DNA from: Candidatus Latescibacterota bacterium
GTDB lineage: Bacteria > Latescibacterota > UBA2968 > UBA8231
DNA: 64,000 bases
Direction of reading: 5' to 3'
NCBI GenBank assembly: GCA_965223905.1
Contig: CBDCXV010000011.1
Coordinates: forward strand, 1-64,000
Below, one piece after another: positions 48,301-64,000 of the stretch (within the stretch, counting starts at the first letter, position 1; every line of letters begins with the position of its first letter). Under the pieces are notes generated by a model. That model saw nothing but the letters and a program-made list of their open reading frames with translations, was not told the DNA's origin and ran no database searches. The translations under genes and the position numbers were made by a program.

Positions 48301-51180
48301 CTATTCCCTTTCCTGCAGGCGCCCAAGCGCCCTCCGTGCCAGCTCCAGCGTCGAATCCTCCTGCACCGCCTTCTGCAACGCGGCGACTGCCTCTTCCCGG
48401 CGGCCCTGCTCTGCATAGGCCATGCCCAGATTCAGGTGGGCCCGCGCCAGGTCCGGGCGCAGGCGCACCACCCTTTCGAAGGTGGCGATCGCCCGCGCCA
48501 AGCGCCCCGCCTGATGCTGGGCGAGCCCCATGTCGTTGAGGGCCGTGACGAGACCTGCGTCGGCGGCGTACGCCCGCCCGTACGCGGCGATGGCGCGGTC
48601 CAGCTTGCCCTGACCGTGCAAGGCCCCGGCCAGGGCGTAGTGGGCTTTGGCGAACTCCGGTTTCAGCGCCACCGCCCGCTCGAACGCCGCCGCGGCCTCG
48701 GCGCCGCGGCCCTGCAGCAGGTATTCCCGCCCGACGCGGAACTGCAGCTCGGCATCGTCCGGAGTGACCCTGAGCACCTTCCGGAAGCGGTTGATGCGGT
48801 CCTGTACCGGCCGCAGGCGCGCGAACAGCTGCTGTTCCCGGCGCGCGGCCTGCGGCTGGTCCAGGGCTTCGTACAGGCGGGCGAGATGCTCGTGCGGCGT
48901 CGGGGCCCAGGGAGCCAGGCCCGCGGCGGCCTGAAAGGCATTGATCGCGGAGCGACGACTTCCCGTGCGCAGGTAGGCGAGGCCCAGCCGGTTGCGAATC
49001 TCCCATGCCCTCGGCGCCAGCGCGGCTGCTTTTTCGAGAGCGGCGACAGCGCGTTCCGGTTGATCGAAGCTCAGCCGAACCGCTCCAAGCAGGTGAAAGA
49101 TGGGTGCACGGGTCGAGTCCTTCGACACCGCCTCTTCCAGGACGCGGGCCGCCTTCCGGATCCGTCCCAAGCGCTTGAACAGGGTGACGGCGAGAGAGTA
49201 ATAGGCCTCCATGTGGTGCGGCTCCCGTTTGATCACCTCCCGGAATAGCCGCTCGGCCTCCTCGTGGCGGACCTCTTCGTGCCGTTCGACCCCCATCAGG
49301 TAGATCTCCCGGGCCGTGGCCTGCGCTGGAAGCGCGGCCAGACCGGACGTCTCGTCACCGGCCGGATCTGCCATCTTTTCCCCTGCGGGAGATTTCGTCT
49401 GACCAGGTACCGCCGCCGGTAACGCGGTCGCGACCGCGTATGAGGCGACCGGCTCGTCCTCTCCTTCCCTGAGCTTCAGGTACCGTCCGCTTTCCGGCTT
49501 CTCGAGAACCTGTACCCGGCCGGAAGGCCAGAGGATCTCCACCCGGTCCACCTCTTCCCGGGACCCGAGTCCGAACAGCAGCCGGTGGTCGTGTGCCGAC
49601 TGATAGCCGTAGCTCCGCCGCACCTCCCGGGTCCGGGTTCGCCCGCCGGCGCTCAGGAGCACGCGGGCGCCGATACCGTCGCGGTTGCTGGATGTTCCCT
49701 CCAATTCCAGGCCCAGCCAGTTGTTCCTGTTGCCCCCGTCGTTGCGCAGGAGGGTGGGCGCGTCGTTGAGATTCACCACGGCGATGTCCCGGTCGCCGTC
49801 GTTGTCGTAGTCGCCGAAAGCGGCGCCGCGGCTGACCTTTTCCACGTCCAGGCCGCTGCCGGCGTCAGCCGCCGGCGCGAACCTGCCCCGGTGATTCCAG
49901 TAGAGGAGGTTGCGCTGCCTGTAGCGCAGCGTGGTCGACTGGATCTCCAGCTGCGGGTAGAGGTGGCCATTGGCGACGAACAGGTCCTGCCAGCCGTCGT
50001 TGTCCGCGTCCAGGAAGGCCGTGCTCCAACCCACGAAAGGCCGCACCGGACCGTCCAGGCCGGCCGCGGCCGTCGCGTCGGCGAACATTCCCTTCCCGTC
50101 GTTCCGGTACAGGGTGTTAACGTCCGCGGAGAAATTGGTCACGTAGAAGTCCTGGTCGCCGTCGCCGTCGTAGTCCCCGAAGTCCACGCCCATGCCCGCC
50201 TGGGCCTTGCCGTCGGCGTTGTACGCCACCCCGGAAATCGCACCGACCTCGCGCAACTGCCAGTCGCTGTCGTTGCGCCAGAGCAGATTGGCCTGCTGGT
50301 CGTTGGCCACATAGATGTCCTGGTCTCCATCGTCGTCGTAGTCGCAGAACGCGACCCCCAGCCCGGCGAGTGCTTTGCCGGCTACCCCGGTGGCCGCGCT
50401 CACGTCTTCGAAGACGCCGCCGCCGCCGTTGCGGTAGAGCAGATCGGCCTGGGACCTCAACCCGATGGGCCCGCAGGCACCTTCTATTCCCCGGTAGGCC
50501 AGGCAGGGCTGGCCGTCGTTCGGGGGAGCTTCCAGGTCGAACTCCAGGTAGTTGGCGACGTAGAGGTCGAGCCGGCCGTCCGCGTCCAGATCGCCGAAGG
50601 CGGCGCTGGCGCCCCAGCCGTCGTCGCCGACCCCGGAGCGCGCCGTCACATCGGTGAAGCCTCCGTCGCCGTCGTTCCGGTAGAGGAGGTTCGGCCCCCA
50701 GTAGGTGACGTAGAGGTCCACGTCGCCGTCGTTGTCGTGGTCGGCCGCGGCGCATCCCATGCCCCAGCCCGACCCACCCACGCCGGCGCGCGCGGTGACG
50801 TCGGTGAAGAGTCGCCGGCCGGAGGACCCCGGGACGTTGCGGTAGAGGCGGCTGATGGCGGTTGGGGCCTCCTCCTCGACGCGCGTGCCGTTGACGAGGT
50901 AGAGGTCGAGGTAACCGTCGGCGTCGTAGTCGAAGAAAGCGGCTCCCCCGCTCATCGTCTCGAGAATGAACCGCTGCCCGGCATCGCCGGAGACGTGTGC
51001 GAAGTCCAGGCCCGAAGCCGCGGTCACGTCGGCGAAACGCACCTCCGCCCCCGGCTGGTGGCCGGGCTGCGGAGGGAGGCCGGATGGTGCGGTTTGCGGT
51101 GCCGGGGGAGCGGTATCCTGGTCCTCGGACGGAGCACAGGCAATCCCGCACGTCAGGACCAGTACCATCACCCGGTGCAT
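48301..51180 (-). CDS. CRTAC1/ASPIC-UnbV FG-GAP-repeat lipoprotein with C-terminal TPRs
   Basis: Lipobox-like GIA-C; repeated DxDxDGxxDLYV; RGAAFGDYDNDGD; SNRDGIGARV, FGLG, WPSG; TPR helices. Confidence 0.92.
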   Translation of the reverse strand: MHRVMVLVLTCGIACAPSEDQDTAPPAPQTAPSGLPPQPGHQPGAEVRFADVTAASGLDFAHVSGDAGQRFILETMSGGAAFFDYDADGYLDLYLVNGTRVEEEAPTAISRLYRNVPGSSGRRLFTDVTARAGVGGSGWGMGCAAADHDNDGDVDLYVTYWGPNLLYRNDGDGGFTDVTARSGVGDDGWGASAAFGDLDADGRLDLYVANYLEFDLEAPPNDGQPCLAYRGIEGACGPIGLRSQADLLYRNGGGGVFEDVSAATGVAGKALAGLGVAFCDYDDDGDQDIYVANDQQANLLWRNDSDWQLREVGAISGVAYNADGKAQAGMGVDFGDYDGDGDQDFYVTNFSADVNTLYRNDGKGMFADATAAAGLDGPVRPFVGWSTAFLDADNDGWQDLFVANGHLYPQLEIQSTTLRYRQRNLLYWNHRGRFAPAADAGSGLDVEKVSRGAAFGDYDNDGDRDIAVVNLNDAPTLLRNDGGNRNNWLGLELEGTSSNRDGIGARVLLSAGGRTRTREVRRSYGYQSAHDHRLLFGLGSREEVDRVEILWPSGRVQVLEKPESGRYLKLREGEDEPVASYAVATALPAAVPGQTKSPAGEKMADPAGDETSGLAALPAQATAREIYLMGVERHEEVRHEEAERLFREVIKREPHHMEAYYSLAVTLFKRLGRIRKAARVLEEAVSKDSTRAPIFHLLGAVRLSFDQPERAVAALEKAAALAPRAWEIRNRLGLAYLRTGSRRSAINAFQAAAGLAPWAPTPHEHLARLYEALDQPQAARREQQLFARLRPVQDRINRFRKVLRVTPDDAELQFRVGREYLLQGRGAEAAAAFERAVALKPEFAKAHYALAGALHGQGKLDRAIAAYGRAYAADAGLVTALNDMGLAQHQAGRLARAIATFERVVRLRPDLARAHLNLGMAYAEQGRREEAVAALQKAVQEDSTLELARRALGRLQERE

Positions 51181-51183
51181 GCG

Positions 51184-53112
51184 TTACCTGGGGGGCTGGA
51201 GATTGGGCATCACGCCGTCCAGGAGCCGCGCGAAACCCGCCTTCGCCACGCTCTCGAGCTGTTTGCCTCGACTCAGCCTGGCGTAGGTTTCGCGATGACG
51301 CCGGGCCTCTGCCTCCTTCCCGACCCGTTCCTTCAGCATGCCGAGAAACAGGTGCGGATAGGGATCTTCCGGCACCTCTTCCCGCACGTATTCGAGGTGG
51401 GCGATGGCCTCCGCATGCCGCTGCCGGCGGGTCAGCAGGAGCGCCAGCAGCTGACGGGCCCCGAGATGGTCGGGGCGCAGCCGGATCGCTTCGCGGAGAT
51501 GGATCTCGGACTCCTGGAGCTGTGCGGCGTCAACGGGCGAGGTGGAATCCACCTCGAACAGGCTGTCCTCCAGGGCCCGCTCCAGCAGCGCCCCTCCCAA
51601 CCTGGCGTGCCAGAGGTGATTTCCGGGATCCTCCGAAAGCAGCGCGCGGTACTGCTCGATCGCCCGGTCCGTTTGCCCGCCGCGATCGTACAGCTGGGCC
51701 AGCTGGTAGCGCAGGAGGGTGGAGTCAGGCCGGGCCGCCACCGCCTCGGCGTAAGCAGCGGCGGCGCGGTCGATCCGCCCCATCGCCCGGTAGGCCTCCC
51801 CCAGGCGCACCAGCAGTCCCGGCGAGGGAGCGCCGCGTGCGCGGACCTGCTTCCAGGAGAAGACGGCCTCGTCCATGCGTCCGGTGGCGGCGTAGCCATC
51901 CCCCTGCAGGAGCAGGATCTCCGGTGCTTCGGGATGAGACCGGAGGAACTCCGCGCAGACGGTGAGAGCCTCCTCCGGCCTGCCTTGGTCAAGGTACAGC
52001 TTCGCCAGCTCCCGCGTGGCCGGCTTGTGAGCCGGCATCTGCTCGACGGCCCGGCGGTAGGCGCCGGCGGCATGGGCCGTCATCCCCTGACGGGCACAGG
52101 CGACGCCCATCCAATAGTGATGATGCGCAGCGCCCGCCAGATGCGCGGGCGTCTTCACCCCGAGGTTGCAGGCGACGACAAGGAAGAGGATGCCGGCCGT
52201 CTTCCACGCTCTTCGATTGCTTCTCCACAGGTCTTCTACGGCCAGAGCGGCGAAGGGCAGCATCAGCAGCGCCAGGGGCAGCCGCTGGCGCGCATCGGGG
52301 GCGAGGAGGCCGAACACAACCGCGGACGCGAAGACGAAAAGCAGCAGCGCCCTGCCGGCCGTCGTGCGGGCCCCGGCAGAGCGCCCGAACAGGACGAGCC
52401 CGGGAATGGCCAGAGGCAGTATCACCCCGAACGGGAAGGCCAGCCACCGGTCCCACAGCAGGGCGCCGATCACCGCGGAATGGCCGCTGATCAGATAGGG
52501 ATCGAGGTCCGGGAGCAACTCCCGGCCCTGGACGAGATGGAAGAGATTGGGCGCCGACCCGGCCAGGCTGCCCAGGGCCGGCAGGTTGCGAAAGGGAAGG
52601 GATTCGACCAGCACCAGGGCCAGAAGCAGGGCGGAGATCGTCCACCTGCAGACCGGCTTCTGCACCGGCGGACGGGCGACACTCAACAGAAACAGAGGCC
52701 CAAGCAATGTCGACCACGTAGTCGGCGTCAGCTCGCCGACGAAGCAGATGGAGGGCCCGTAGAAGGCCGCGGCCAGGCCGGCCGCAAGACCGATGGCGCG
52801 GGAGAACAGGGTCGCGGACAGCAGGTAGATCAGCAGACAGGCGGCGGTGCCCGCCGCGGCCTGGCCGAAAAAAACCAGGGTCGGATCACCTTCCCCGATT
52901 CGGAGGGTGGCGCCGACAACGCGGGTGTAGAGGGGAGCGCGGGGTGAGGGTTGGTCCAGACCTGAATCCCGGTCCGGCGCGACGCCCGCGAAGAGAGAAG
53001 CCACCCCGCCGGGACCACTGAGAAAGGGACTGTCCTGGATTTCGTGGAGATAGGCGAATCGCACGGCGATCGCCGCAAGGCCGATCAGCAGCAGGCGCTG
53101 AAGGTCGGACAC
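51184..53112 (-). CDS. GT-C/PMT-like membrane protein with C-terminal TPR repeats
   Basis: N-terminal TM array (RAPLY, AAFYGP, ARQRLP) followed by TPRs. Confidence 0.7.
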   Translation of the reverse strand: MSDLQRLLLIGLAAIAVRFAYLHEIQDSPFLSGPGGVASLFAGVAPDRDSGLDQPSPRAPLYTRVVGATLRIGEGDPTLVFFGQAAAGTAACLLIYLLSATLFSRAIGLAAGLAAAFYGPSICFVGELTPTTWSTLLGPLFLLSVARPPVQKPVCRWTISALLLALVLVESLPFRNLPALGSLAGSAPNLFHLVQGRELLPDLDPYLISGHSAVIGALLWDRWLAFPFGVILPLAIPGLVLFGRSAGARTTAGRALLLFVFASAVVFGLLAPDARQRLPLALLMLPFAALAVEDLWRSNRRAWKTAGILFLVVACNLGVKTPAHLAGAAHHHYWMGVACARQGMTAHAAGAYRRAVEQMPAHKPATRELAKLYLDQGRPEEALTVCAEFLRSHPEAPEILLLQGDGYAATGRMDEAVFSWKQVRARGAPSPGLLVRLGEAYRAMGRIDRAAAAYAEAVAARPDSTLLRYQLAQLYDRGGQTDRAIEQYRALLSEDPGNHLWHARLGGALLERALEDSLFEVDSTSPVDAAQLQESEIHLREAIRLRPDHLGARQLLALLLTRRQRHAEAIAHLEYVREEVPEDPYPHLFLGMLKERVGKEAEARRHRETYARLSRGKQLESVAKAGFARLLDGVMPNLQPPR

Positions 53113-53116
53113 CTCG

Positions 53117-54165
53117 CTACTTCCGGAGCAGGCTGTCCGGCAGGGCTTCGGTCAGCTCCCTGGAATGCACCACCACCTGCGAGGCGTACTTCTCGCCCAG
53201 CTTCCGCAGCAAGCCCTCCAAGGCTTCCGCCTGCCGTCGTCCGAGCAGCAGGGTCCGCGCCCGGCGGCTCGCCCGTTCGTAGGGATACATGCTTTCCGGA
53301 ACCCGCTCCAGCACCCGAAAGATCGAGTATCCACCCGCCACGGCGACCGGTCCCGTCAGTTCTCCCTCCCTCGCCAGGGCTGTCGCCGCGGTCAGTTGAG
53401 GGTAGATCTGCCCCTCCTGCCGGTGGAAGTGATACCGGGCACCGAGCTTGCGGGCGTCGGGGCGCAGGCTGTGGCCCGCCAGATCGACAAATCGCTCGCC
53501 CGCTGCGATCCGGTCGCGGATTTCCCTCGCCGCGGCTTCGGATCCCAACAGCAGCTCCTCGACCGCGGTATACCCCTCGATGCGGAAGATACCCGGATTG
53601 TCGTCGTAGTAGCCCCGGACTTCCTCCTCTGAAACTTCGATGCCGGCCACCGCCGTGCTTCTTACCGCTTCGGCGACCGCCTGGTCCCGCTGCTGTCTGC
53701 GAAACCGGTGAATGTCCGGTGTGTCGTAGAGTCCGGCGGCCGCGGCTGCGAGCTCGAACAGACGCGGTGACAATACGTAGCTCCGGACCACTTGCTCGGC
53801 CTGGGCGCTGTCGGCAAAGCTCCGGCGCAGGCCGGCCGCAGCCAGAGCTTCATCCGCCTCGGCCACCGTGATGACCCCCTTGTCGTGGTGGTAGAGGGGG
53901 GTGGAGCTGGCAGCCAGGGGGTCGGAACGCCGCCGCCGGTAGGCTTCCATCAGCTCCCTCAAACCCGCCGGGTTCAGACGAACGCGGTAAGAGTGGGCGA
54001 GGGCTTCCCGGTGCTCGCTCAGTGCCTGAATTCTTCGCTTCCGTCTGAGTTGGCGTTCGATGAGAGGGGCGTATTTCGAAAACGCCACCGGAACGGTCTC
54101 CGTGAACCTGATTACCTGCCAGGAGCCCCCGGCGACCGCCAGCGGCCGGGAGACCTCGCCGTCGG
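53117..54165 (-). pseudogene. PpiC/parvulin-type peptidyl-prolyl isomerase, 5'-truncated
   Basis: VSEEEVRGYYDDN, GERFVDLA.HS, GELTGPVAVAGGYSIFRV. The frame begins mid-domain at DGEVSRPLAVAGGSWQVIRF with no start or signal. Confidence 0.7.
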
Positions 54166-56388
54166 GTCGCGGCAGCCTACGGTTACAATACCATAGGGGC
54201 GATGCTCGGCTGCCTGGCCGCGGGGTTCGTGCTGATTCGGGAGCTAGGTGTCCAGAACAGCCTTTATCTGGCCGCCGCCGTCAACGCCCTGGTAGTCGCC
54301 ATCGCCTTCGTCGCTTCCCGGTACAGGGGCAACAGTGCCGCGGCCGGCACCGAAGCCGGCAAACCGCGGATCGCAGCCGAGGCGTATGCTCGGCCGCGGG
54401 CTCTCGTCGCCATCTACTTCTGCACCGGAGCCCTCGCCCTGGGGTACGAGATCCTCTGGTTTCGCATTCTCGCCATCTACGCGACCAACAGCATCGTCAC
54501 CTTTACGCTCATCCTCTCCACCTACCTGCTCGGCTTTTCCGCCGGCAGCATTCTGCTGTATCCGCTGTTGGCCCGCAGGTTGCACGGACTCACCCTGCTC
54601 GCGGTCTCCAACCTCGGCGCGGCGTTCTCGGTATTCCTTACGTTGCCCCTGGTCTATTCCTTCCCCGCCATGCAGGAGGTGCTGCACGGACCGGCGAGCC
54701 GGGAGGCCCTGACTCCGCTCAGGCTTGCGGGCGTCGAGACCTGCTTCGCCCTCGTCATGATTCTGCTGCCGACGCTGTTCATGGGTCTGGCCTATCCCGC
54801 ACTCTGCCAGGTCCTGGTTCCGAGCAAGGAGTCCACCGCCGAGCGAACCGGCCTGTACTACTTTGTGGGAACCATCGGAGCCGTGGTGGGAGTGATCCTG
54901 GTCGGCTTCGTCGTCATTCCGGGATTCGGCCTGGTGGGCAGCGTCGGGACGCTCTGTTTCGCCAGTTGCGCGCTGGCTTTCCTGACCCTGCAGGTCGGCA
55001 GGGAGACCCCCGTTCGCGGAAGGTTTGTCCTGGTCACCTGTTGTTCGCTTCTGGCCGGAGCCGCCGTGCTCTATGGCTACAACGGCCATCCGTTCCTGAA
55101 GACCGCCAACGTCGATTTACAGGAGGGCAGATGGGTCGTCCGAAAGCCGCGTGGCGACGGCAGGATAAAGACGCTCCTGCGCTACGCGGCCGGCCATTCG
55201 GGGACTGTCATCGTCAAGGGGATAAGCGAACCCGGCAGCAATATCACCACCGAAGCCCATATCTATGTCGATGACCAGGCCGTGGCCGCCTCCACGCTGA
55301 ACAACCGGATCGACTCGAAGATGCTCGCTCACCTGCCGCTGCTCCTGCACCCGGACCCGGAGCGGGCCCTGACCGTCGGCTTCGGCAGCGGCGGCACCTC
55401 CTGGTCGATGACCCTGCACGGGGTCGAGACCGACTGCGTGGAGATCGAAGCCGAGGTGCCCCGCTCCGCCTTTTTGTTCCGGGATCAGAATCGCGACGTG
55501 CTGAACCATCCCGGTTTCCGCCTGATCCTCAACGACGCCCGCGACCATCTGCACATCACGGACAGGAAGTACGACGTGATTTCGACGGATGCCACCAACC
55601 TGCAGTACAAACAGAACGGCAATCTCTATTCGAGGGAATATTTCCGCCTCATCAGGTCTCGCCTTTCCGCAGGGGGGATCGCCTGCACCTGGACGCCGAT
55701 GGTCAAGATCAGCGAGCCGGAATTCAAGATCCTGCTGAAGACCTGGGCCGACGTCTTCGAGCATCCCAGTCTCTGGTTCATGAATCACTCCCTCTCCAGC
55801 TGGTCGATATTCGTCGCCACACCCGGGCCGTTGACGATCGACATGAACCGGGTGCGGGAAGGTTTTGCCGATTCCGGCATTCGGGCGGACTTGAGCGACA
55901 TCCTCGTCGAGCACCCATTCCAGTTCGCCAATTTCCTGCTTTTGGATGAAGACGGGATTCGAAGCTACGTCGGGGACGTTCCGGTCCACACCGACGACCG
56001 GCCGCTTCTCGAGTTCTTCTCCGCGTTCGAATTCTACCAGCGCAATCACCTGAGGGAGAACAACCTGCTGGATGCACTCCCCTTCCGGCCCGGGAACGTT
56101 CGCCGCTTAGCCCGCAATCTCGACGGGCAGGATGCCGAGCTGTTCGACAAGTACACCCGGGCGGGCCAGCTGTGGACCGAGGTCCTGGCGCGCTTCATGT
56201 CCTATGGATACATGCGCTACGACACGACCGAGCCAGCCGCAGACAAGCTGAAAAAAGTGGAAGGCGCACTGCAGACGGGGATGCAGGCCCTCGATCTGCT
56301 GCCGGCCAACAGGGCCCTGCGCGACATCATGCAGCGGCTGAGCAAGGTGCGGCAGGAGCTGCTGGCGAAAGCCCGGCATGGCCGGTAG
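54160..56388 (+). pseudogene. Fused MFS/spermidine-synthase-like protein, 5'-truncated
   Basis: Begins at internal motif RRVAAAYGYNTIGAMLG; TM array then ALTVGFGSGGT, CVEIE, NDARDHL, KYDVI, LYSREYF, HTDDRPLLEF. Confidence 0.8.
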
Positions 56389-56773: not shown

Positions 56774-59700
56774 TCAGGGGGCGCTGAAGACCCAGGGGCG
56801 GGCCTGCTTGATCGCCAGTATATCGGCGCTGGTGATCTTGAACTCGATCTCCATGGCGAACGGTTCACCGGCTGCGGGGTCGTACAGCTCCGCGAACTCC
56901 TCGTGGATCACCTCGAGATGCTCTCTCAACTGGCGCAGTTGGTCATCGCTCATCAGGAGTTGCCCCGGCGGCACCTGGTTGGAGGTCGCAAGGACGGTGT
57001 ATGCACTGTTTCTGCTCAGCAGAAGTTCCTCCGGCACCGAGTGCGCCTCGGGGTTGGTGACCAGGTCCTCGCCGACCTGCGTGTTGACGTAGTAGCGTCC
57101 GTCTCTGCCGTAGATGGGGTCGAAGCTGACGGCGACACCGTTGGCCAGTTCGTCACGATAACTGGGATGCACCAGCACCCCCATCGCCGCCGCCAGGTGA
57201 TCGATGCGATGAAAATCGCGTTCGACGAAGGCGCGGAAGTTCCACAGACCGGCGTACACCTCCTTGAGGGACTTGGCGAGATCCTTCTCGTCCTCGCTCG
57301 GCTTCTGGCTCTTGGAGTCGTACAGCCCCGCGCCGTTGAAGCCCGGCAGGTCCTCGTTGTTGGTGCTGGACCGGTAGCGGCGGTTGATCCCCTCGGAGAA
57401 AGACTCATTCATTGTCTCGATTGCCGAGATGATCCAATCCGGCGTCTCCGCGTCCTCGATGGCCTTGCGCAGCTTCTTGAGGGAGTCCGCCCGGGCTTCG
57501 AAGTCCGTCTGGAAGGCTTCGTCGGCCAGCATGGTTTCAACGCGGGTGTAGAAGTCGTTGTGCTTCATGAACTCGTCGTAGAAGTAGAACGGGATCGCGA
57601 AGCCGTCGGGCACCGTCCCCTCCGGAAACCCCAGCGTCCCCAGCACCGCCACGTTGGCCGCCTTGACGCCGAACGCGTCCCAGTCATCGAAGCCGATCTC
57701 ACTGAGCGGCGTGATTTGGGTGATCTCGAGGTCCCGTTGCGGGATCTGTTCATGGGCGGGCCGGGAAGACTCGTAGTGCGCCTCGACTTCTGCGGGCGTG
57801 GCCGCCCCAAGCTCCCAGCCGCTATCCGTCACCTCGTAGCGGACGTAGCCGCCGATGAGAGTGTTGATAGAGCTGTTGTCGAGCGCGTCGGCGATGAAGG
57901 CATTGGGGATGCCGTCCTGCACGGCGCGCAGGTTGACGTGCGACAGGGGCGTCTGGGGCACGGTGCTGACGATGCCGGCCACGCGGGAAAGTTCGTTGGG
58001 CAGGGCCTCGTAGAGCACCACGTCGCGCGGGTGGGGACGTTCGTCCGGGTCCATGACCCGCAGCAGGCCGTACCCTTCCCCCGGGTTCAACGCCAGGAAG
58101 CCGGATTCGGGAGAGATGTCTTCGTCGAACAAGAGGTTGATTCGGGAATCCCTGTAGAGCGGCAAGTCGGACTGGAAAGACAGAAGCTGATTGTTTCTTA
58201 TGTGAAAGGCCAAGTTGTCCTCGAGCAGCCGCATGCTGGCGGCGAGCATCGTATAGGAGCGCGCCACAAGGCTGAAGGAGAAGGGGAAAACAGATCTTAC
58301 CGTAAGCGATAAACGGTAGACTCCCGGACTGCCATCGGGGGCAACGAGGTCCGTGTAATAGGTGATTTCACCGGTGATCATCCTGTCCTGGCCCGGGTCG
58401 AGACCTACGGCATCCAAGAAGTATTGATGCTGCTGGTAGGTCTCGGTGTTCATGAAGTAGACACGCGGGCGGGCGGTGTCCATGCCGAGCAGAACGAACT
58501 TGAGGAACAAACCGCTGAAGGAGAGTGTCTCGAATGTTTCCCGATCGGGAACGGTCACGGCCCCGTCAGTGAGTGCGATGGCCGCCGCCGGGTTCAGCGG
58601 GTTCATGCCCACCGTGTCGAGTTCGGTGAGGTCGTCAATGCAGTCGCCGTCGACGTCGGCCGGGTCGGCGACGAGGTACTTCTCCACCCGGTAGCGCTCC
58701 CTGGGCAGCGCCGCCACGTTCTCGGCGAGCGTGGTCGTGCCCGCTTCGCCGCGCTTGACCAGGACCGGCACCTCTACCGTCGCGCCATCCACATCGTGCC
58801 GCACATAGAGCACGAAGTAGTCATCCGTCGTGGACTCGACCACGATGGGAACCGCCGTCACCTGCACAGCCACCGGCGTCGGGGCGTCGCCGCCTTCTGA
58901 ACAGCTCCCCCCGAAGCCCGAGACGGACCATTCGCTCTCCCCTTCGTCGTTGTGCGCCCGCACCTGCACCTCGTAACGGGTGTTGACCTCCAGGTCCGGG
59001 ATCGTGGTAGTGGTACCGGGGCCGTCGTGCGGCCAGGGGAGGAAGCTGCCGCTCTTGCGATACTGCACGTCGTAGTCGTGGACATCGGGGCCGGTGTTGG
59101 CCGGCTCGGTCCAGGTCACGGTCAGGCTGGTGGAGGAGGCCGGCTCAACCCACGGGGCAGACGGCCTCCCGGGCGGTTCGTCGACGTCGGCTACGTGGAT
59201 GGTCACGTCAATGGCGGCAATGCCGCCATGTCCGTCCTCGGCTTTCACCGACACAGAATAGCGGGGCTTTGTCTCGTAGTCGTAGGTGGCGCCCGAGCGG
59301 GTGCGCAACTGGCCGCTGGTGGAGGCGAGGGTGAAACTCCCCGCATCCGTCCCCTCCAGGTTGTAGGTCAGCCTGTCGTCATCGCTATCCGTCGCGGTCA
59401 CCGGGTTGCCGATGTCCTCACGCGCCCCGGTGTTCTCGGCCACGGTGCGGGTTGCGGCCGGTGCCTCGTCGAAGGTGGGGGCGTTGTTCTGACCCGGCGG
59501 AGGCGGAGGCGGCGGGTCCGGCGGTGGAGGCGTTGGAGGCGTTGGAGGCGGCGGTGGAGGTGGAGGCGTCGGGGGCGGGGGGGTTACCGGACCACCACCG
59601 TCATTACCATTACCATCACCATCGTCACTGCCCGAGCCGGGTGGGGTCCGGGGCGGCCTGGGGGGCGGCTTGGGCTCGACGGTGACCCTGAAGCTCAGTG

Positions 59701-62700
59701 ACGCCTCCAGTTCCTTCGGGTCGCGGGCGGTCACTGAGATCCCGGTCTGCCCGATGCTCTTGGGGGTGATGCGCAGGCCGGTTCCTTCGACCGCTGCGGT
59801 GGCCACCGCCTCGTTGCTCGACGCGGCCGTGTAGGTCAGCACGTCTGTTTCGTCCGGGTCGGTGAAGGCGTCCGACAGCTCGACCCGGTCCGGGCTGCCG
59901 ATGCGGATCTTGCGGTCGGCCAGGGTCCCCGCCACCGGCGGGCGGTTGGCTGGGTACACGGTCACCGGGACCGGCAGAGTGGCAGCCCGGCCCCCCTCGT
60001 CGCGGGCGGTCACCGCGACCGTCACCCGGCCGGGGGTCACCGGGGATATGGTCAGCACCGAGTCGGCCAGAGTCGCGGCGGCGACCGCTTCGTCGCTGGA
60101 GGCGGCGGTGAGGGTCAGGGCGCCCCCCTCCGGGTCGCGGAAGCGGCCGGCCAGGTTCAGGGTGGCCGAGGCCCCCTCTACTTTGAGGATCTGCGCCGGC
60201 AGGCCGGCGCCCAGGGTCAGGCCGTACGGCTCCTTCAGGCCGGAAGTGACCAGATCCTCGACCTGGCTGCCGTCGAGGTTGGCGCGCTGGATCTTGTCGG
60301 TGCCGTAGTCGGTCCAGTACATCCTGCCCTCGTCCAGATCGAGGGCGATCGCCTGGGAGGTCCGCAGGCCCTCGGTAACCAGGTCTTCCACCTCGGAGCC
60401 GTCGAGATTCGCGCGCTGGATCTTGTCCGTGCCCCAGTCGGGCCAGTACATGCGGCCGTCTTCCAGGTCGAGGGCGAGGCCCCGGGGCTGGTTGAGGCCG
60501 GTGACCAGGTCCTCGACTTCGGAGCCGTCGAGATTGGCCCGCTGAATCCGGTCGCTGCCCCAGTCGGTCCAGTAGATCTTGCCCTCCCCCAGGTCGAGGG
60601 CGAGGCCGTAGGGCTCGTTCAGACCGGTGGCGACGAGGTCTTCGATTTCGGAGCCGTCGAGATTGGATCGCTGGATACGGTCGGTCCCCCAGTCGCTCCA
60701 GTAGATCTTGCCGCCTCCCAGATCGAGGGCGAGACCGAACGGCTCCTTCAACCCTTCGGTCACCAGGTCTTCGACCTTTGAGCCGTCGAGGTGGGCGCGC
60801 TGGATCTTGTCGGCGCCGCTGTCGGTCCAGTACATGCGGCCGCCGTCCCGGTCGAGGGCGATGTCCCGGGGCTGCATGAGTCCGCCGACCAGGGTGCGAA
60901 TGTCGCTGCCGTCGAGCTCGGCCCGCTGGATGCGGTCGGTGCGCGCGTCGGTCCAGTAGAGCCAGGGCACGGCGAGCGGGGGCTCGTTGGAGGCCTGCAC
61001 GGTGACCGAAAACCTCTGGGTTGCCTGCAGGCCGCCCGGGTCGCGGGCGGTCACGGTGACGGCGGTCTCGCCGACGGCCAGCAGACGCAGGGTCACCAGG
61101 GAATCGGCTGTCTCCACCGTCGCCACCGTTTCGTCGCCGGACGAGGCCGTGTAGGTCAGGGCGTCTCCGTCCGGGTCGCTGCCGGCCAGCTCGAGAATCA
61201 CCGAGTCGCCGGTGGCCGCGGTGCGGTCCGCCAGCGGCTCCAGGGCAGGGGCCTGGTTGTCCGTGGACAAAGTCCGGGCAAGGGCCAGGCCCCGGGGACT
61301 CCGCAAGCCCTCGGTCACCAGGTCTTCCACCTCGGAGCCGTCGAGGTTGGACCGCTGGATGCGGTCGGTGCTGCTGTCGGCCCAGTAGAGCTTGCCCGCA
61401 GAAACGTCGAGGGCCAAGCCCCGGGGGGTGCCCAAACCGGTGGTCACGAGATCCTCGATTTCCGTGCCGTCGAGGTTGGCCCGTTGAATGCGGTCGGTTC
61501 CGTTGTCGCTCCAGTAGAGCTTGCCGCCGGCCGCGTCCAGGGTGAGTCCCCGGGGGATCTGCAGGCCGGTGGTGACGAGGTCTTCGAGTTCAGTGCCATC
61601 AAGGTTTGCGCGCTGGATTCGGTCGGCGCCGCTGTCGGTCCAGTAAAGCTTGCCCGCGGCCGCGTCGAGGGCCAGGCCCAACGGCGTCTGCAGGCCGGTC
61701 ACCAGGTCTTCCACTTGAGAGCCGTCGAGGTTGGACCGCTGAATCTTGTCGGTGCCGTTGTCCGTCCAGTAGAGCTTGCCGCCGGCCGCGTCGAGGGCCA
61801 GGGCCAGGGGGATCCGCAGGCCTTCGGTGACGAGGTCCTCGATTTCGGAGCCGTCGAGGTTGGACCGCTGGATGCGGTCGGTTCCGTAGTCGGTCCAGTA
61901 GAGCTTGCCGGCCGCCTGATCCACCGCCAGGCCGCGCGGGTTGACCAGGCCGCTGTCGACGACGTCCTCGACCCCGGAGCCGTCCAAGTGGGCGCGCCGG
62001 ATCCGGTCCGCCTCCGCGTCGGTCCAGTAGAGCCGGTTGACCGCCCCGAGGCTCCCGGCCCCGACGACGAGCACGGCGAAGCGCTGCACCGCCTCCAGGC
62101 CGTCCGGGTCGCGGACGGTCACCGCAATCGTCGCCCGGCCCATCGCCAGCGCGTAGACCGTCAGCAGGGAATCGGTCACCTCGACCCTGGCTACCGCCTC
62201 GTCGCTCGATGAAGCCGCGTAGGTCAGGGCGTCTCCGTCCGAGTCGCGGCCCGTCGCCACGACAGTCAGGGTGTCGCCGGCGGCCGCGGTCCGGTCCGCT
62301 ATAGGCGCCAGGACCGGGGCCCGGTTGCCGCCGGCAACGGTCCGCACCAGGACCAGGCCCCGGGGACTTTCCAGCCCCTCGGTCACCAGGTCTTCGATTT
62401 CAGAGCCGTCGAGGTTGGACCGCTGGATCTTGTCGGCGCCGCTGTCGGTCCAGTAGAGCTTGCCTGCGGCCGTATCCAGGGCCAGGCCCCGGGGACTTTC
62501 CAGCCCCTCGGTCACCAGGTCTTCGATTTCAGAGCCGTCGAGGTTGGCCCGCTGGATCTTGTCGCTGCCGTTGTCGCTCCAGTAGAGCTTGCCCCCGGCC
62601 GCGTCCAGGGCCAGCCCCCGGGGAAGCTCCAGGCCGGCGGTGATGAGGTCCTCGACTTCCGTGCCGTCCAGATTGGCCCGCTGGATCTTGTCCGCGCCGC

Positions 62701-64000
62701 TGTCGCTCCAGTAGAGCTTGCCGCCGGCTGCGTCCACGGCCAGGCTCAACGGCGTCTGCAGGCCGGTCACCAGGTCCTCGACTTGAGAGCCGTCGAGGTT
62801 GGACCGCTGGATGCGGTCGGTGCCGTTGTCCGTCCAGTAGAGCTTGCCGCCGGCCACGTCCACGGCCAGACCCAGCGGAATGCGCAGGCCGGTGGTCACC
62901 AGGTCTTCCACCTGCGAGCCGTCGAGGTTGGACCGCTGGATCTTGTCGCTGCCGTAGTCGGTCCAGTAGAGCTTGCCGGCCGCCTGATCCACGGCCAGGC
63001 CGCGCGGGTTGACCAGACCGCTGTCGATCACGTCCTCGACCCCGGAGCCGTCCAGGTTTGCGCGCTGAATGCGGTCGCCGTCCGCGTCCGTCCAGTAGAG
63101 CATCGGCGCATCCGCCGCCGCCACCGGGGCGCCGATCCCTTCCGGCAGCGACGGGTCGGACGGGTCGGCGTGGTAGGCCTCGATCAGCCGGGCGTCGGTC
63201 AGATCGACCAGCCCGTCCCCGTTGACGTCCCCCAGGGTGAGGTCGCCGTTGCCAAGGGACAGGGCCGGGTCCTCGCTGTACGAGGCGATCAGCAGGGCGT
63301 CGGACAGATCGACCCGGCCGTTGCCGTCGACGTCCCCCAGCAGGCCGCCTGCAACGGCCACCTTGCCCCGAGGCAGGGAGGACAGCGGCTGAACCTGGAT
63401 CTCGACAGGCCCGCCTCCCATTCGGAAGGCCGGGTCGACGTAAGGGACCAGCCCCGGACCCGAGACTGTCAGCCCGTAGACCGGTCCCTTACCGCGAGGC
63501 GGGGCTGCCGCCCTGGCGGAACCCCCTCCACCCCCCAAGCCCACCGCCCCGTCCAGCAGCACCATCGACCGCGTCAGCCGCTCCCCGCCTCCCAGCAGCC
63601 GATACAGGTACACCCCCGAGCCCACCCCCCGGCCCGAGGCGTCCGTCGCGTTCCAGGTCGCCGTGTGGAAGCCGGCCGGACGCTCTCCGTCCACCAGGGT
63701 CGCCACCCGCTGGCCCAGAATGTTGAACACCTCCAGCCGCACACGAGCCGGGACCGGAAGCTGATACGGGATGATCGTCGACGGATTGAACGGGTTGGGG
63801 TAGTTCTGACCCAGGTGCAGGCGCGCCGGCAGCGGCGCGGCACGGCGTAGCGCCTTCAGGGGAAAGGCGAAATAGCCGCTCTCATCGGTGGTGACCCGCA
63901 ACGAGCGCCCCAGGTCGCCCGGGGCGAACAGCCGCACCCGGGCCCCGGCCGCCGGAGCCCCCGAAGACAGAAGCACACGCCCCTCCAGCAGCGGCTCGGC
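56774..64000 (-). CDS. Giant modular surface protein with C-terminal dikinase module (5' end outside window)
   Basis: FlgD/T9SS-like Ig, dockerin-like pair, three YWTD propellers, Ig/cadherin repeats, Pro-rich linker, FN3, then LSHVNLRA phospho-His motif, FGVKAANV, RSSTNNEDLPGFNGAGLYDS, EIEFK..IKQARP. Confidence 0.88.
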   Translation of the reverse strand, partial: AEPLLEGRVLLSSGAPAAGARVRLFAPGDLGRSLRVTTDESGYFAFPLKALRRAAPLPARLHLGQNYPNPFNPSTIIPYQLPVPARVRLEVFNILGQRVATLVDGERPAGFHTATWNATDASGRGVGSGVYLYRLLGGGERLTRSMVLLDGAVGLGGGGGSARAAAPPRGKGPVYGLTVSGPGLVPYVDPAFRMGGGPVEIQVQPLSSLPRGKVAVAGGLLGDVDGNGRVDLSDALLIASYSEDPALSLGNGDLTLGDVNGDGLVDLTDARLIEAYHADPSDPSLPEGIGAPVAAADAPMLYWTDADGDRIQRANLDGSGVEDVIDSGLVNPRGLAVDQAAGKLYWTDYGSDKIQRSNLDGSQVEDLVTTGLRIPLGLAVDVAGGKLYWTDNGTDRIQRSNLDGSQVEDLVTGLQTPLSLAVDAAGGKLYWSDSGADKIQRANLDGTEVEDLITAGLELPRGLALDAAGGKLYWSDNGSDKIQRANLDGSEIEDLVTEGLESPRGLALDTAAGKLYWTDSGADKIQRSNLDGSEIEDLVTEGLESPRGLVLVRTVAGGNRAPVLAPIADRTAAAGDTLTVVATGRDSDGDALTYAASSSDEAVARVEVTDSLLTVYALAMGRATIAVTVRDPDGLEAVQRFAVLVVGAGSLGAVNRLYWTDAEADRIRRAHLDGSGVEDVVDSGLVNPRGLAVDQAAGKLYWTDYGTDRIQRSNLDGSEIEDLVTEGLRIPLALALDAAGGKLYWTDNGTDKIQRSNLDGSQVEDLVTGLQTPLGLALDAAAGKLYWTDSGADRIQRANLDGTELEDLVTTGLQIPRGLTLDAAGGKLYWSDNGTDRIQRANLDGTEIEDLVTTGLGTPRGLALDVSAGKLYWADSSTDRIQRSNLDGSEVEDLVTEGLRSPRGLALARTLSTDNQAPALEPLADRTAATGDSVILELAGSDPDGDALTYTASSGDETVATVETADSLVTLRLLAVGETAVTVTARDPGGLQATQRFSVTVQASNEPPLAVPWLYWTDARTDRIQRAELDGSDIRTLVGGLMQPRDIALDRDGGRMYWTDSGADKIQRAHLDGSKVEDLVTEGLKEPFGLALDLGGGKIYWSDWGTDRIQRSNLDGSEIEDLVATGLNEPYGLALDLGEGKIYWTDWGSDRIQRANLDGSEVEDLVTGLNQPRGLALDLEDGRMYWPDWGTDKIQRANLDGSEVEDLVTEGLRTSQAIALDLDEGRMYWTDYGTDKIQRANLDGSQVEDLVTSGLKEPYGLTLGAGLPAQILKVEGASATLNLAGRFRDPEGGALTLTAASSDEAVAAATLADSVLTISPVTPGRVTVAVTARDEGGRAATLPVPVTVYPANRPPVAGTLADRKIRIGSPDRVELSDAFTDPDETDVLTYTAASSNEAVATAAVEGTGLRITPKSIGQTGISVTARDPKELEASLSFRVTVEPKPPPRPPRTPPGSGSDDGDGNGNDGGGPVTPPPPTPPPPPPPPTPPTPPPPDPPPPPPPGQNNAPTFDEAPAATRTVAENTGAREDIGNPVTATDSDDDRLTYNLEGTDAGSFTLASTSGQLRTRSGATYDYETKPRYSVSVKAEDGHGGIAAIDVTIHVADVDEPPGRPSAPWVEPASSTSLTVTWTEPANTGPDVHDYDVQYRKSGSFLPWPHDGPGTTTTIPDLEVNTRYEVQVRAHNDEGESEWSVSGFGGSCSEGGDAPTPVAVQVTAVPIVVESTTDDYFVLYVRHDVDGATVEVPVLVKRGEAGTTTLAENVAALPRERYRVEKYLVADPADVDGDCIDDLTELDTVGMNPLNPAAAIALTDGAVTVPDRETFETLSFSGLFLKFVLLGMDTARPRVYFMNTETYQQHQYFLDAVGLDPGQDRMITGEITYYTDLVAPDGSPGVYRLSLTVRSVFPFSFSLVARSYTMLAASMRLLEDNLAFHIRNNQLLSFQSDLPLYRDSRINLLFDEDISPESGFLALNPGEGYGLLRVMDPDERPHPRDVVLYEALPNELSRVAGIVSTVPQTPLSHVNLRAVQDGIPNAFIADALDNSSINTLIGGYVRYEVTDSGWELGAATPAEVEAHYESSRPAHEQIPQRDLEITQITPLSEIGFDDWDAFGVKAANVAVLGTLGFPEGTVPDGFAIPFYFYDEFMKHNDFYTRVETMLADEAFQTDFEARADSLKKLRKAIEDAETPDWIISAIETMNESFSEGINRRYRSSTNNEDLPGFNGAGLYDSKSQKPSEDEKDLAKSLKEVYAGLWNFRAFVERDFHRIDHLAAAMGVLVHPSYRDELANGVAVSFDPIYGRDGRYYVNTQVGEDLVTNPEAHSVPEELLLSRNSAYTVLATSNQVPPGQLLMSDDQLRQLREHLEVIHEEFAELYDPAAGEPFAMEIEFKITSADILAIKQARPWVFSAP
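60200..63100 (-). repeat. Coding tandem YWTD (LDL-receptor class B) repeats in three blocks
   Basis: ~43-aa units KLYWTD.G.DKIQRANLDGS.VEDLVT.GL..P.GLALD; near-identical DNA units such as CCGTCGAGGTTGGACCGCTGGAT. Confidence 0.92.

Follow-up and report, generated by a model that had tools for sequence, protein, structure and literature searches.

The DNA analyzed comprises the first 64 kb of contig C11 (hereafter, the window) of a Candidatus Latescibacterota genome of 7.9 Mb and 64% G+C, and its minus strand carries a gene that runs off the window edge and encodes a giant adhesin-like protein. It is proposed here, with a probability of about 0.6, that the product is an exported, probably surface-displayed multidomain protein, whose C-terminal 708 amino acids (aa) would act as a self-contained dikinase module with a swivelling phospho-histidine domain (His domain). 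Within the His-swivel dikinase superfamily, the module represents a secreted branch that is both new and very large, displaying the domain order of the plant glucan,water dikinases (GWD) together with an acceptor domain of its own, and carried in this case by a giant adhesin-like protein. A surface-tethered dikinase had already been suggested for this locus by an original prediction made from the sequence alone. That interpretation was partly supported, since architecture and export were borne out and function is left to inference, but the prediction had missed the family of which the module is a member, which is very large and shared horizontally.

The conserved unit corresponds to the last 708 aa of the protein (window 56777-58900), so that the predicted catalytic module is present but longer than the ~600 aa initially assigned to it. 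AlphaFold2 models generated from a 33-sequence alignment were confident (mean pLDDT of 85.7 over the full module and of 87.7 over residues 1-400) and revealed five parts, namely a beta-sandwich (residues 1-78), an Asp/Glu loop, an alpha/beta domain (~100-265), a small domain (266-381), and an ATP-grasp (395-708). The order in which acceptor-side domains precede the His domain, which precedes the ATP-grasp, with nothing after it, is therefore real and GWD-like; the protein ends six residues past the ATP-grasp, with no further Pfam domain. When the last 708 aa were searched against Pfam at E<=10, PPDK_N alone was matched and the PEP-utilizers_C barrel was absent, in agreement with the earlier statement that a pyruvate-binding TIM barrel is missing.

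The ATP-grasp was identified by several comparisons. It scored 84.3 bits with PF01326, against a cut-off of 27, and a family profile searched against PDB retrieved only phosphoenolpyruvate (PEP) synthases (9dae, 3.5e-16; 2ols, 9e-13) and rifampin phosphotransferase (RPH; ~3e-7), always on the N-terminal nucleotide-binding domain of these enzymes. Foldseek returned 5hv1 (5e-14) and 2ols (9e-14), followed by HpeI (9goj, 4e-12) and pyruvate phosphate dikinase (PPDK). Upon alignment to PEP synthase, the GVKAAN, RSSTNNEDLP, and MEIEFK...KQARP motifs corresponded to GGKNA, RSSATAEDLP, and DIEW...QARP, respectively. The segment RSSTNNEDLPGFNGAGLYDS, which had been recognized as an ATP-grasp motif at ~57320-57375, was located at 57314-57373, the former position being approximate. 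The ATP-grasp motif residues were kept in 96-100% of 343-356 homologs sharing 43-94% identity, including K413 (355/356), R510 and E516 (354/355 each), E686 (343/345), Q699 (342/343), and R701 (341/343).

The small domain was assigned by structure. The N-terminal half of the model was compared, without bias, with 48,161 PDB representatives, and the top matches all fell over residues 266-381. These were the His domain of RPH (score 10.5; rmsd 2.4 over 95 residues, chain 755-867), the PEP-utilizer-like C-terminal domain of Bacillus pyruvate kinase (10.2), Enzyme I (9.5 and 9.1), the PPDK phosphoryl-carrier domain (8.7 and 8.6), EI-Ntr (8.6), and Aconitase X (8.5), the next match (6.3) being unrelated. 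In the region GIVSTVPQTPLSHVNLRAVQDGIPNAFI, His321 opens the helix 321-329, behind strand 309-312 and ahead of strand 333-336, and it is conserved in 353 of 356 homologs, while L319 and R325 are each found in 355 of 356. A swivelling phospho-His fold with a conserved His at the helix start is thus present, and the fold matches and H321 conservation together support the swivel assignment anticipated from the TPLSHVNLRA motif, whose His codon had been placed exactly, although the domain is too divergent for the Pfam model. Residues 1-265, on the acceptor side, comprise 13 strands and 5 helices according to DSSP of the models. The Asp/Glu loop may bind calcium, and the alpha/beta domain (domain B), presumed to bind the acceptor, gave no clear fold match in the structural search.

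Concerning export, the open reading frame (ORF) stops at 56774 and accounts for 2408 aa within 56774..64000, without closing before the window ends. Followed along the contig, it extends to a stop at C11:64256-64258, and its first ATG, at 64150, yields a 2459-aa protein. This N-terminus consists of MRPTLRLENPIDTPRTLSARRSSASFPGAGGFGWLLAVLGCLAAPGSGAGA followed by EPLLEGRV, combining a basic stretch with a hydrophobic core of 13 residues and an ending of the Ala-x-Ala type, and was judged signal-peptide-like by inspection and hydrophobicity score. The lack of a signal peptide upstream had been named as a reason to abandon the export hypothesis, and a signal-like N-terminus was found precisely there. 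The leader of a paralog encoded elsewhere in the genome differs, yet the ...SGAGA/EPLLEGRV junction is identical. Moreover, of 106 homologs carrying the module at their N-terminus, 93 had a signal-like hydrophobic stretch, usually ending in ...AQAQG just ahead of the module. In all three Bacteroidota proteins examined, the module was followed by CARDB and SprB (in one, also by a lamin-tail domain) and by a C-terminal Por_Secre_tail of the type IX secretion system (T9SS). In Atlas, a Bacteroidota cluster carried Por_Secre_tail in 62% of its members and Planctomycetota clusters carried EF-hands, the neighbor clusters being labelled hypothetical or "PEP synthase family". SLH domains (PF00395) were found in 2 of 120 listed homologs.

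The paralog mentioned above (G000:C2:173017-178344, plus strand) is a collinear 1775-aa frame with one YWTD propeller instead of three and a module 82% identical to that of the giant protein. It repeats the FN3-to-module junction on a different contig, and fn3 and module are also joined in close homologs, such as P0152 (94%) and P0303 (2470 aa, 81%), the latter having the same entire architecture as the giant protein. The junction at ~58900, for which an assembly chimera had been feared, is therefore very probably genuine. Logan contigs over window 58200-59600 were very fragmented, with 35-565 pieces per run on 1.4 kb, and position 58900 was bridged by one near-identical contig (run X6, record 29) with a single difference. 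Runs X1, X2, and X6 each held 449-565 short contigs with at least 90% likeness to this interval, more than half of them in the 90-95% band, indicating that diverged versions of the FN3-module region are numerous in these samples.

The module family is large. A scan of 1.84 billion representatives recovered 4215 proteins at E<=0.001, of which 1231 reached E<=1e-30; the top 150 matches covered nearly all 708 aa with 46-80% identity. A complete module was found in 228 of 266 homologs. In 133 of them it started within 100 residues of the N-terminus, with other domains after it, in 79 it was internal, and in 10 it was C-terminal, which is the placement found in the giant protein. P0002 and P0003 contained two PPDK_N stretches each, and 22 of the 120 listed long homologs (P0002, P0003, and P0283-P0302) scored 1500-2045 bits, so that these proteins combine two dikinase modules in a single polypeptide. 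None of the 240 listed homologs, nor of 21 cluster members, carried a source name. In GTDB, with one genome per species, at least 558 module loci were detected, and the best 80 were used for the neighbor and tree analyses. These 80 loci belonged to Dehalococcoidia, Acidimicrobiia (including Ca. Poriferisodalis and Ca. Poriferisocius), Latescibacterota, Acidobacteriota, Thermodesulfobacteriota, Poribacteria, Planctomycetota, and Bacteroidota. The record titles of many holders name sponge-associated lineages, namely Poribacteria, Ca. Poriferisodalis, and Ca. Poriferisocius; the family also occurs in Bacteroidota with titles that mention no sponge lineage, among them a groundwater metagenome-assembled genome (MAG). 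The Poribacteria versions (L056, L061, L063, L065, L068, L073-L075, L079, and L080) are stand-alone proteins of ~720 aa that end at the ATP-grasp and are devoid of module residues 1-100, that is, of the beta-sandwich and the Asp/Glu loop.

The spread of the module is patchy and crosses phyla. In a FastTree analysis of the 80 modules, Chloroflexota, Actinomycetota, Acidobacteriota, Latescibacterota, and Thermodesulfobacteriota were intermixed in one clade of 56, and starred branches required the label to change at least 12 times for Chloroflexota and at least 8 times for Actinomycetota; Bacteroidota formed a single clade, as did Poribacteria. Some mixed sister pairs came from complete chromosomes (e.g., L005/L006 and L034/L038), and mis-binning is therefore not the explanation for all of them. 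Within Latescibacterota, the module was carried by 13 of 121 genomes, or by 10 of 52 when high-quality genomes alone are counted, and by one of two other genomes of the genus. As a control, identity over the conserved RpoB core was compared with module identity in the same genomes, and the module was the more similar of the two in a Latescibacterota MAG (76% vs 68%), in Terriglobia (69% vs 58%), and in Thermodesulfobacteriota (67% vs 53%). An RpoB pattern scan for taxonomy was less useful, yielding mostly Alphaproteobacteria at about 50%, with KSB1 as the best named hit at 60%. Repeated horizontal transfer is the simplest reading of the tree and the control, with paralogy and MAG labelling as caveats.

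The mechanism proposed for the module derives from the analogy with RPH, PEP synthase, and GWD. The C-terminal ATP-grasp would bind ATP, and His321 of the small swivel domain would take its beta-phosphate, with release of AMP and inorganic phosphate (Pi). The His domain would then swing to the N-terminal alpha/beta domain B, where the phosphate would move to a hydroxyl of the bound acceptor. The net reaction, ATP + acceptor-OH + H2O -> AMP + Pi + acceptor-O-phosphate, would thus proceed via phospho-His321. The propellers and the Ig, cadherin, FN3, and dockerin domains may tether the enzyme to the cell surface or to a host or matrix ligand. The folds of the domains and their order, the conserved catalytic residues, the export signals, and the size and patchy, cross-phylum spread of the family are documented by the data, and this chemistry, the nature of the acceptor, and the availability of ATP outside the cell are what we infer from these comparisons. 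The leading guess for the acceptor is a carbohydrate polymer of the surroundings. The sole functional hints came from giant homologs, in which rare fusions were observed between the module and two sulfatase domains (Sulfatase and SGSH_C) in P0050, also in P0382, and between the module and a pyrroloquinoline quinone (PQQ) glucose/sorbosone dehydrogenase in P0051, also in P0372. The substrates of such enzymes are extracytoplasmic sugars and sulfated glycans, and a carbohydrate acceptor is thereby weakly favored.

Several observations weigh against this interpretation. Extracellular ATP is scarce, and the enzyme fusions are rare, amounting to 4 proteins among 10 scanned and 120 listed. Domain B presented no recognized carbohydrate-binding fold. 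The module had no match to the PEP-utilizers mobile domain (PF00391) at E<=10, a model that found two other genes only in the genome search, and hhalign against PEP_mobile domains of related genomes was weak (E 0.027, probability 1.8%), although even this alignment pairs H321 with the catalytic His of GGxTSH. The lack of a C-terminal sorting signal means that, in a diderm, the protein could stop in the periplasm. Finally, the all-against-all comparison of flanking ORFs revealed no conserved neighbor and no ATP-supplying partner in the 80 loci, the largest cluster spanning 8 loci. The small neighbor clusters had been considered as conserved partners and were rejected as within-clade synteny or spurious high-GC frames.

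Other readings of the protein were weighed against the same data. A surface phosphotransferase for small molecules, acting for instance on antibiotics, phenolics, or metabolites of the host or of competitors so as to detoxify or capture them, is considered unlikely. RPH gave the best structural match to the ATP-grasp as well as to the His domain, HpeI (9goj) was also matched at 4e-12, and, as far as the available parts of the literature describe them, characterized bacterial dikinases other than PEP synthase and PPDK use small hydroxylated molecules, as do RPH, the B. subtilis phenolic phosphate synthetase, and Hpe kinase. However, the known examples are cytoplasmic and follow the order ATP-grasp, substrate domain, and His domain, while the 165-aa domain B had no match to the rifampin-binding domain, RPH residues 755-867 alone having aligned to the N-terminal half of the model; adhesin-like tethering would also better suit a polymeric or surface-bound acceptor. 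It is decidedly unlikely that the module uses water or an irrelevant acceptor and simply converts ATP to AMP and Pi, either to scavenge phosphate or to dampen host purinergic signals. Export, an intact ATP site, and the many sponge-associated holders are consistent with such an activity, and GWD1 itself also passes phosphate to water, according to the legend of Fig. 9 in the structural study (PMC13553574). In sponges, extracellular ATP and ADP are described as signals and AMP as inert in the available text of one report (PMC11883242), and an ATP-to-AMP enzyme on a symbiont surface would, speculatively, fit this signalling. Nevertheless, domain B is missing from hardly any member, and its K134, H158, and R253 are almost invariant, a conservation that argues for a specific acceptor; the Bacteroidota holders whose titles mention no sponge lineage, including the groundwater MAG, are untouched by the sponge argument, and simpler apyrases or nucleotidases could do the job.

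It is very improbable that the enzyme phosphorylates the envelope or matrix polymers of its own cell, such as an exopolysaccharide or S-layer glycan, during or after export. A protein whose only signal is of Sec type, with no C-terminal sorting domain, the existence of SLH-anchored relatives, and the absence of conserved neighbors pointing to a host target could all be read in this way. In turn, linkage to polysaccharide-synthesis genes was not seen in the 80 loci, and a patchy gene that moves between phyla with very different envelopes would be unexpected for such a role. That the module is non-catalytic, an ordinary PEP synthase, or an assembly chimera is largely refuted. The partial NCBIfam PEP synthase matches (64.5 bits against a cut-off of 598) and the short, fragmented Logan contigs at the FN3-module junction are outweighed by catalytic residues kept at ~96-100%, by the absent barrel and a domain order unlike that of PEP synthase, and by a junction that recurs in the paralog and in close homologs and is bridged by the X6 contig. 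The reading of an exported dikinase module is preferred. An extension of it, offered as a long shot, is that the module is a horizontally traded symbiosis tool, in which a surface dikinase would turn host extracellular ATP into AMP and Pi without ADP release and tag host matrix glycans, so that sponge-matrix remodelling would be coupled to a damping of purinergic signals for alarm or contraction; as a bacterial family with the GWD domain order, it might in addition be where the plant starch dikinases obtained their cassette of His domain and ATP-grasp, a prokaryotic origin that has long been sought.

Table 1. Features of the giant protein gene; coordinates refer to the window unless preceded by C11, and domain residues follow P0001 (the window protein) or, where indicated, the module.
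Feature	Position	Strand	Basis or remarks
Whole gene to window edge	56774..64000	-	ORF; N-terminus beyond window at C11:64001-64150
Signal-peptide-like N-terminus, MRPTLRL...FGWLLAVLGCLAAPGSGAGA followed by EP	C11:64001-64150, outside window	-	Hydrophobic window score 2.36, within homolog signal-peptide range
CarboxypepD_reg-like beta-sandwich	63857..63988	-	Pfam E 2.5e-5, 25.0 bits, under 32.3 cut-off
FlgD_ig / Por_Secre_tail-like domain	63569..63802	-	Pfam FlgD_ig 1.6e-6; TIGR04183 1.5e-6; genome search C11:63563-63802
Dockerin type I-like Ca-binding domain (Dockerin_1, residues 221-275)	63176..63340	-	Pfam 6.3e-7
YWTD (LDL-receptor class B) six-bladed propeller 1	62336..63103	-	Pfam and regex
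Ig-like domain (Big_2 / cadherin_4-like)	62081..62341	-	Pfam
YWTD propeller 2	61268..62035	-	Pfam and regex
Ig-like domain (Big_9 / PKD)	60998..61258	-	Pfam
YWTD propeller 3	60200..60964	-	Pfam and regex
Two Ig-like domains (tandem-95 / Big-type)	59651..60175	-	Pfam, NCBIfam
Pro/Gly/Asp-rich linker	59411..59647	-	Sequence inspection
Cadherin-like domain (residues 1533-1592)	59225..59404	-	Pfam 4e-5, 24.4 bits, under 28.8 cut-off
FN3 domain (fn3, residues 1617-1692)	58925..59152	-	Pfam 1.2e-14
Module domain A, beta-sandwich (module 1-78)	58667..58900	-	AlphaFold2: block pLDDT 85-97 over 11-80; first ten residues 57-67
Asp/Glu-rich loop DPADVDGDCIDDLTELD	58616..58663	-	D82, D84, D86, D90, E93 invariant
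Module domain B, alpha/beta (module ~100-265), presumed acceptor-binding domain	58106..58603	-	K134, H158, R253 near-invariant
Swivelling phospho-histidine domain (module 266-381)	57758..58105	-	
Putative phospho-acceptor His codon (module H321 = window-fragment residue 2021)	57938..57940	-	H in 353/356 homologs
PPDK_N-type ATP-grasp, motifs GVKAAN, RSSTNNEDLP, MEIEFK...KQARP	56777..57718	-	Pfam PF01326, residues 2110-2402, E 1.2e-23

Upstream of the module, Pfam bore out the surface domains previously described (dockerin-like, three YWTD propellers, cadherin/Ig, and FN3), the cadherin match being below threshold. Ldl_recept_b matched 18 stretches (E 7.5e-155), and the regular expression [LMI]YW[TSAP]D likewise gave 18 blades in three groups of six. 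Only two weak matches (33 and 23 bits) were obtained for a cohesin partner of the dockerin. The Por_Secre_tail/FlgD_ig-like domain, usually a C-terminal T9SS sorting signal, lies directly behind the signal peptide in both paralogs (G000:C2:173383-173616 in the second), and TIGR04183 had 123 matches genome-wide. A further Por_Secre_tail match was found downstream of the paralog, at C2:180206-180445, inside a 4098-aa frame.

The local neighbors of the giant gene offer no clue to its function. Convergent on its 3′ end is a 728-aa ORF with a spermine/spermidine synthase domain (window 54202-56388, plus strand; E 1e-14), beyond which lie a PPIC-type peptidyl-prolyl isomerase (53117-54088) and two large tetratricopeptide repeat proteins (48301-53112, minus strand), one of them with FG-GAP repeats and an ASPIC/UnbV domain. 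Promoter and terminator scans at both gene ends gave nothing above shuffled sequences, and no RNA run holding the gene was listed among 22 runs.

The characterized superfamily enzymes act, in the available portions of the cited papers, inside cells or plastids, where ATP is plentiful, and the same chemistry has apparently been moved outside bacteria in this family, onto adhesin-like scaffolds. Neither a name nor a paper for its 4215 representatives (1231 at E<=1e-30) was found in the literature searched, and none of the papers retrieved dealt with a secreted dikinase of bacteria or with PPDK_N proteins of sponge symbionts, supplements not being covered by this search. Strong selection within host-associated communities is suggested by the patchy, cross-phylum spread, in which the between-phylum similarity of the module is about equal to that of the RpoB core or higher. 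Once found, the acceptor would define a new extracellular phosphorylation reaction and would help to show how sponge symbionts handle host matrix or signals.

The known relatives described in the accessible parts of the literature are RPH, Hpe kinase, GWD1 (from structural work), MarK, VadK, and HapC. PEP synthase (PpsA) and PPDK share with the module a homologous ATP-grasp (G-x-K, RSS..ED, E.E...QARP) and the His-swivel fold, but they combine ATP-grasp, His domain, and a C-terminal PEP/pyruvate TIM barrel, whereas the module is barrel-free and has the His domain and ATP-grasp in reversed order. Accordingly, its NCBIfam scores with models of the PEP synthase type are far under the cut-offs (64.5 vs 598 and 61.9 vs 739.75). 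RPH-Lm (PDB 5hv1 and 5fbs) and its homolog, the B. subtilis phenolic phosphate synthetase, show the same three-part logic, with no barrel and a reaction between ATP and an acceptor that yields AMP, Pi, and phospho-acceptor. RPH is a cytoplasmic enzyme whose solved chains (840-883 residues) have no export signal or adhesin domains. Its order is ATP-grasp, rifampin-binding domain, and His domain, of which the module is a cyclic shift (acceptor domain, His domain, and ATP-grasp), and the NCBIfam RPH model NF041857 gave 47.6 bits against a cut-off of 999. In the available text on RPH, rifampin is phosphorylated at the expense of ATP, the products being phospho-rifampin, AMP, and Pi (PMC4844700). 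The two-component hydroxyphenylethanone kinase HpeHI belongs to the same superfamily, acts on hydroxyl acceptors, and is matched by the ATP-grasp (9goj, 4e-12), but it is made of separate subunits and serves aromatic catabolism, its abstract describing no export signal or adhesin context.

The closest likeness in layout is to GWD and phosphoglucan,water dikinase (PWD), in which an acceptor-side domain is joined by a very short linker to the His domain, followed by a C-terminal PPDK-type ATP-binding domain, with no barrel. Likewise, the His domain of the module (266-381) lies directly upstream of the ATP-grasp (395-708). In the consulted sections of the potato GWD1 study, the order is central domain, His domain, and ATP-binding domain, the His domain pivots and is connected to the central domain through four residues, and H992 comes after the conserved V989 and L990 (PMC13553574). 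A Leu two residues ahead of the His is shared (L990-x-H992 in GWD1; P318, L319, and H321 in the module). The contrast drawn in the original prediction, between PEP synthase, PPDK, and RPH with the ATP-grasp first and GWD with the His domain first, agrees with the chain ranges and the published GWD1 order. Its assignment of a GWD-type module held for that order and failed for the acceptor part. In GWD1, two CBM45 modules accompany a central domain of 20 helices (PDB 9HA9/9QVI; PMC13553574), while module residues 1-265 form a beta-sandwich and a small alpha/beta domain; this difference was judged by secondary structure against published GWD1. A 2026 review states, in its available part, that a full GWD or PWD structure had not been solved (PMC12892837), and the 2026 Journal of Biological Chemistry paper, as far as its available text goes, solved the central domain of GWD1 only (PMC13553574). 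No carbohydrate-binding Pfam family was matched in the 2408 aa, the presence of a CBM45 model in the library not having been checked. With an acceptor side that is small and beta-rich and in which no carbohydrate-binding module was matched, the module differs from a GWD precisely where specificity is determined. Furthermore, GWD is plastidial and eukaryotic, whereas the module family is bacterial and exported, and finding its acceptor would provide a bacterial comparator, and possibly an ancestor, for the plant glucan,water dikinases.

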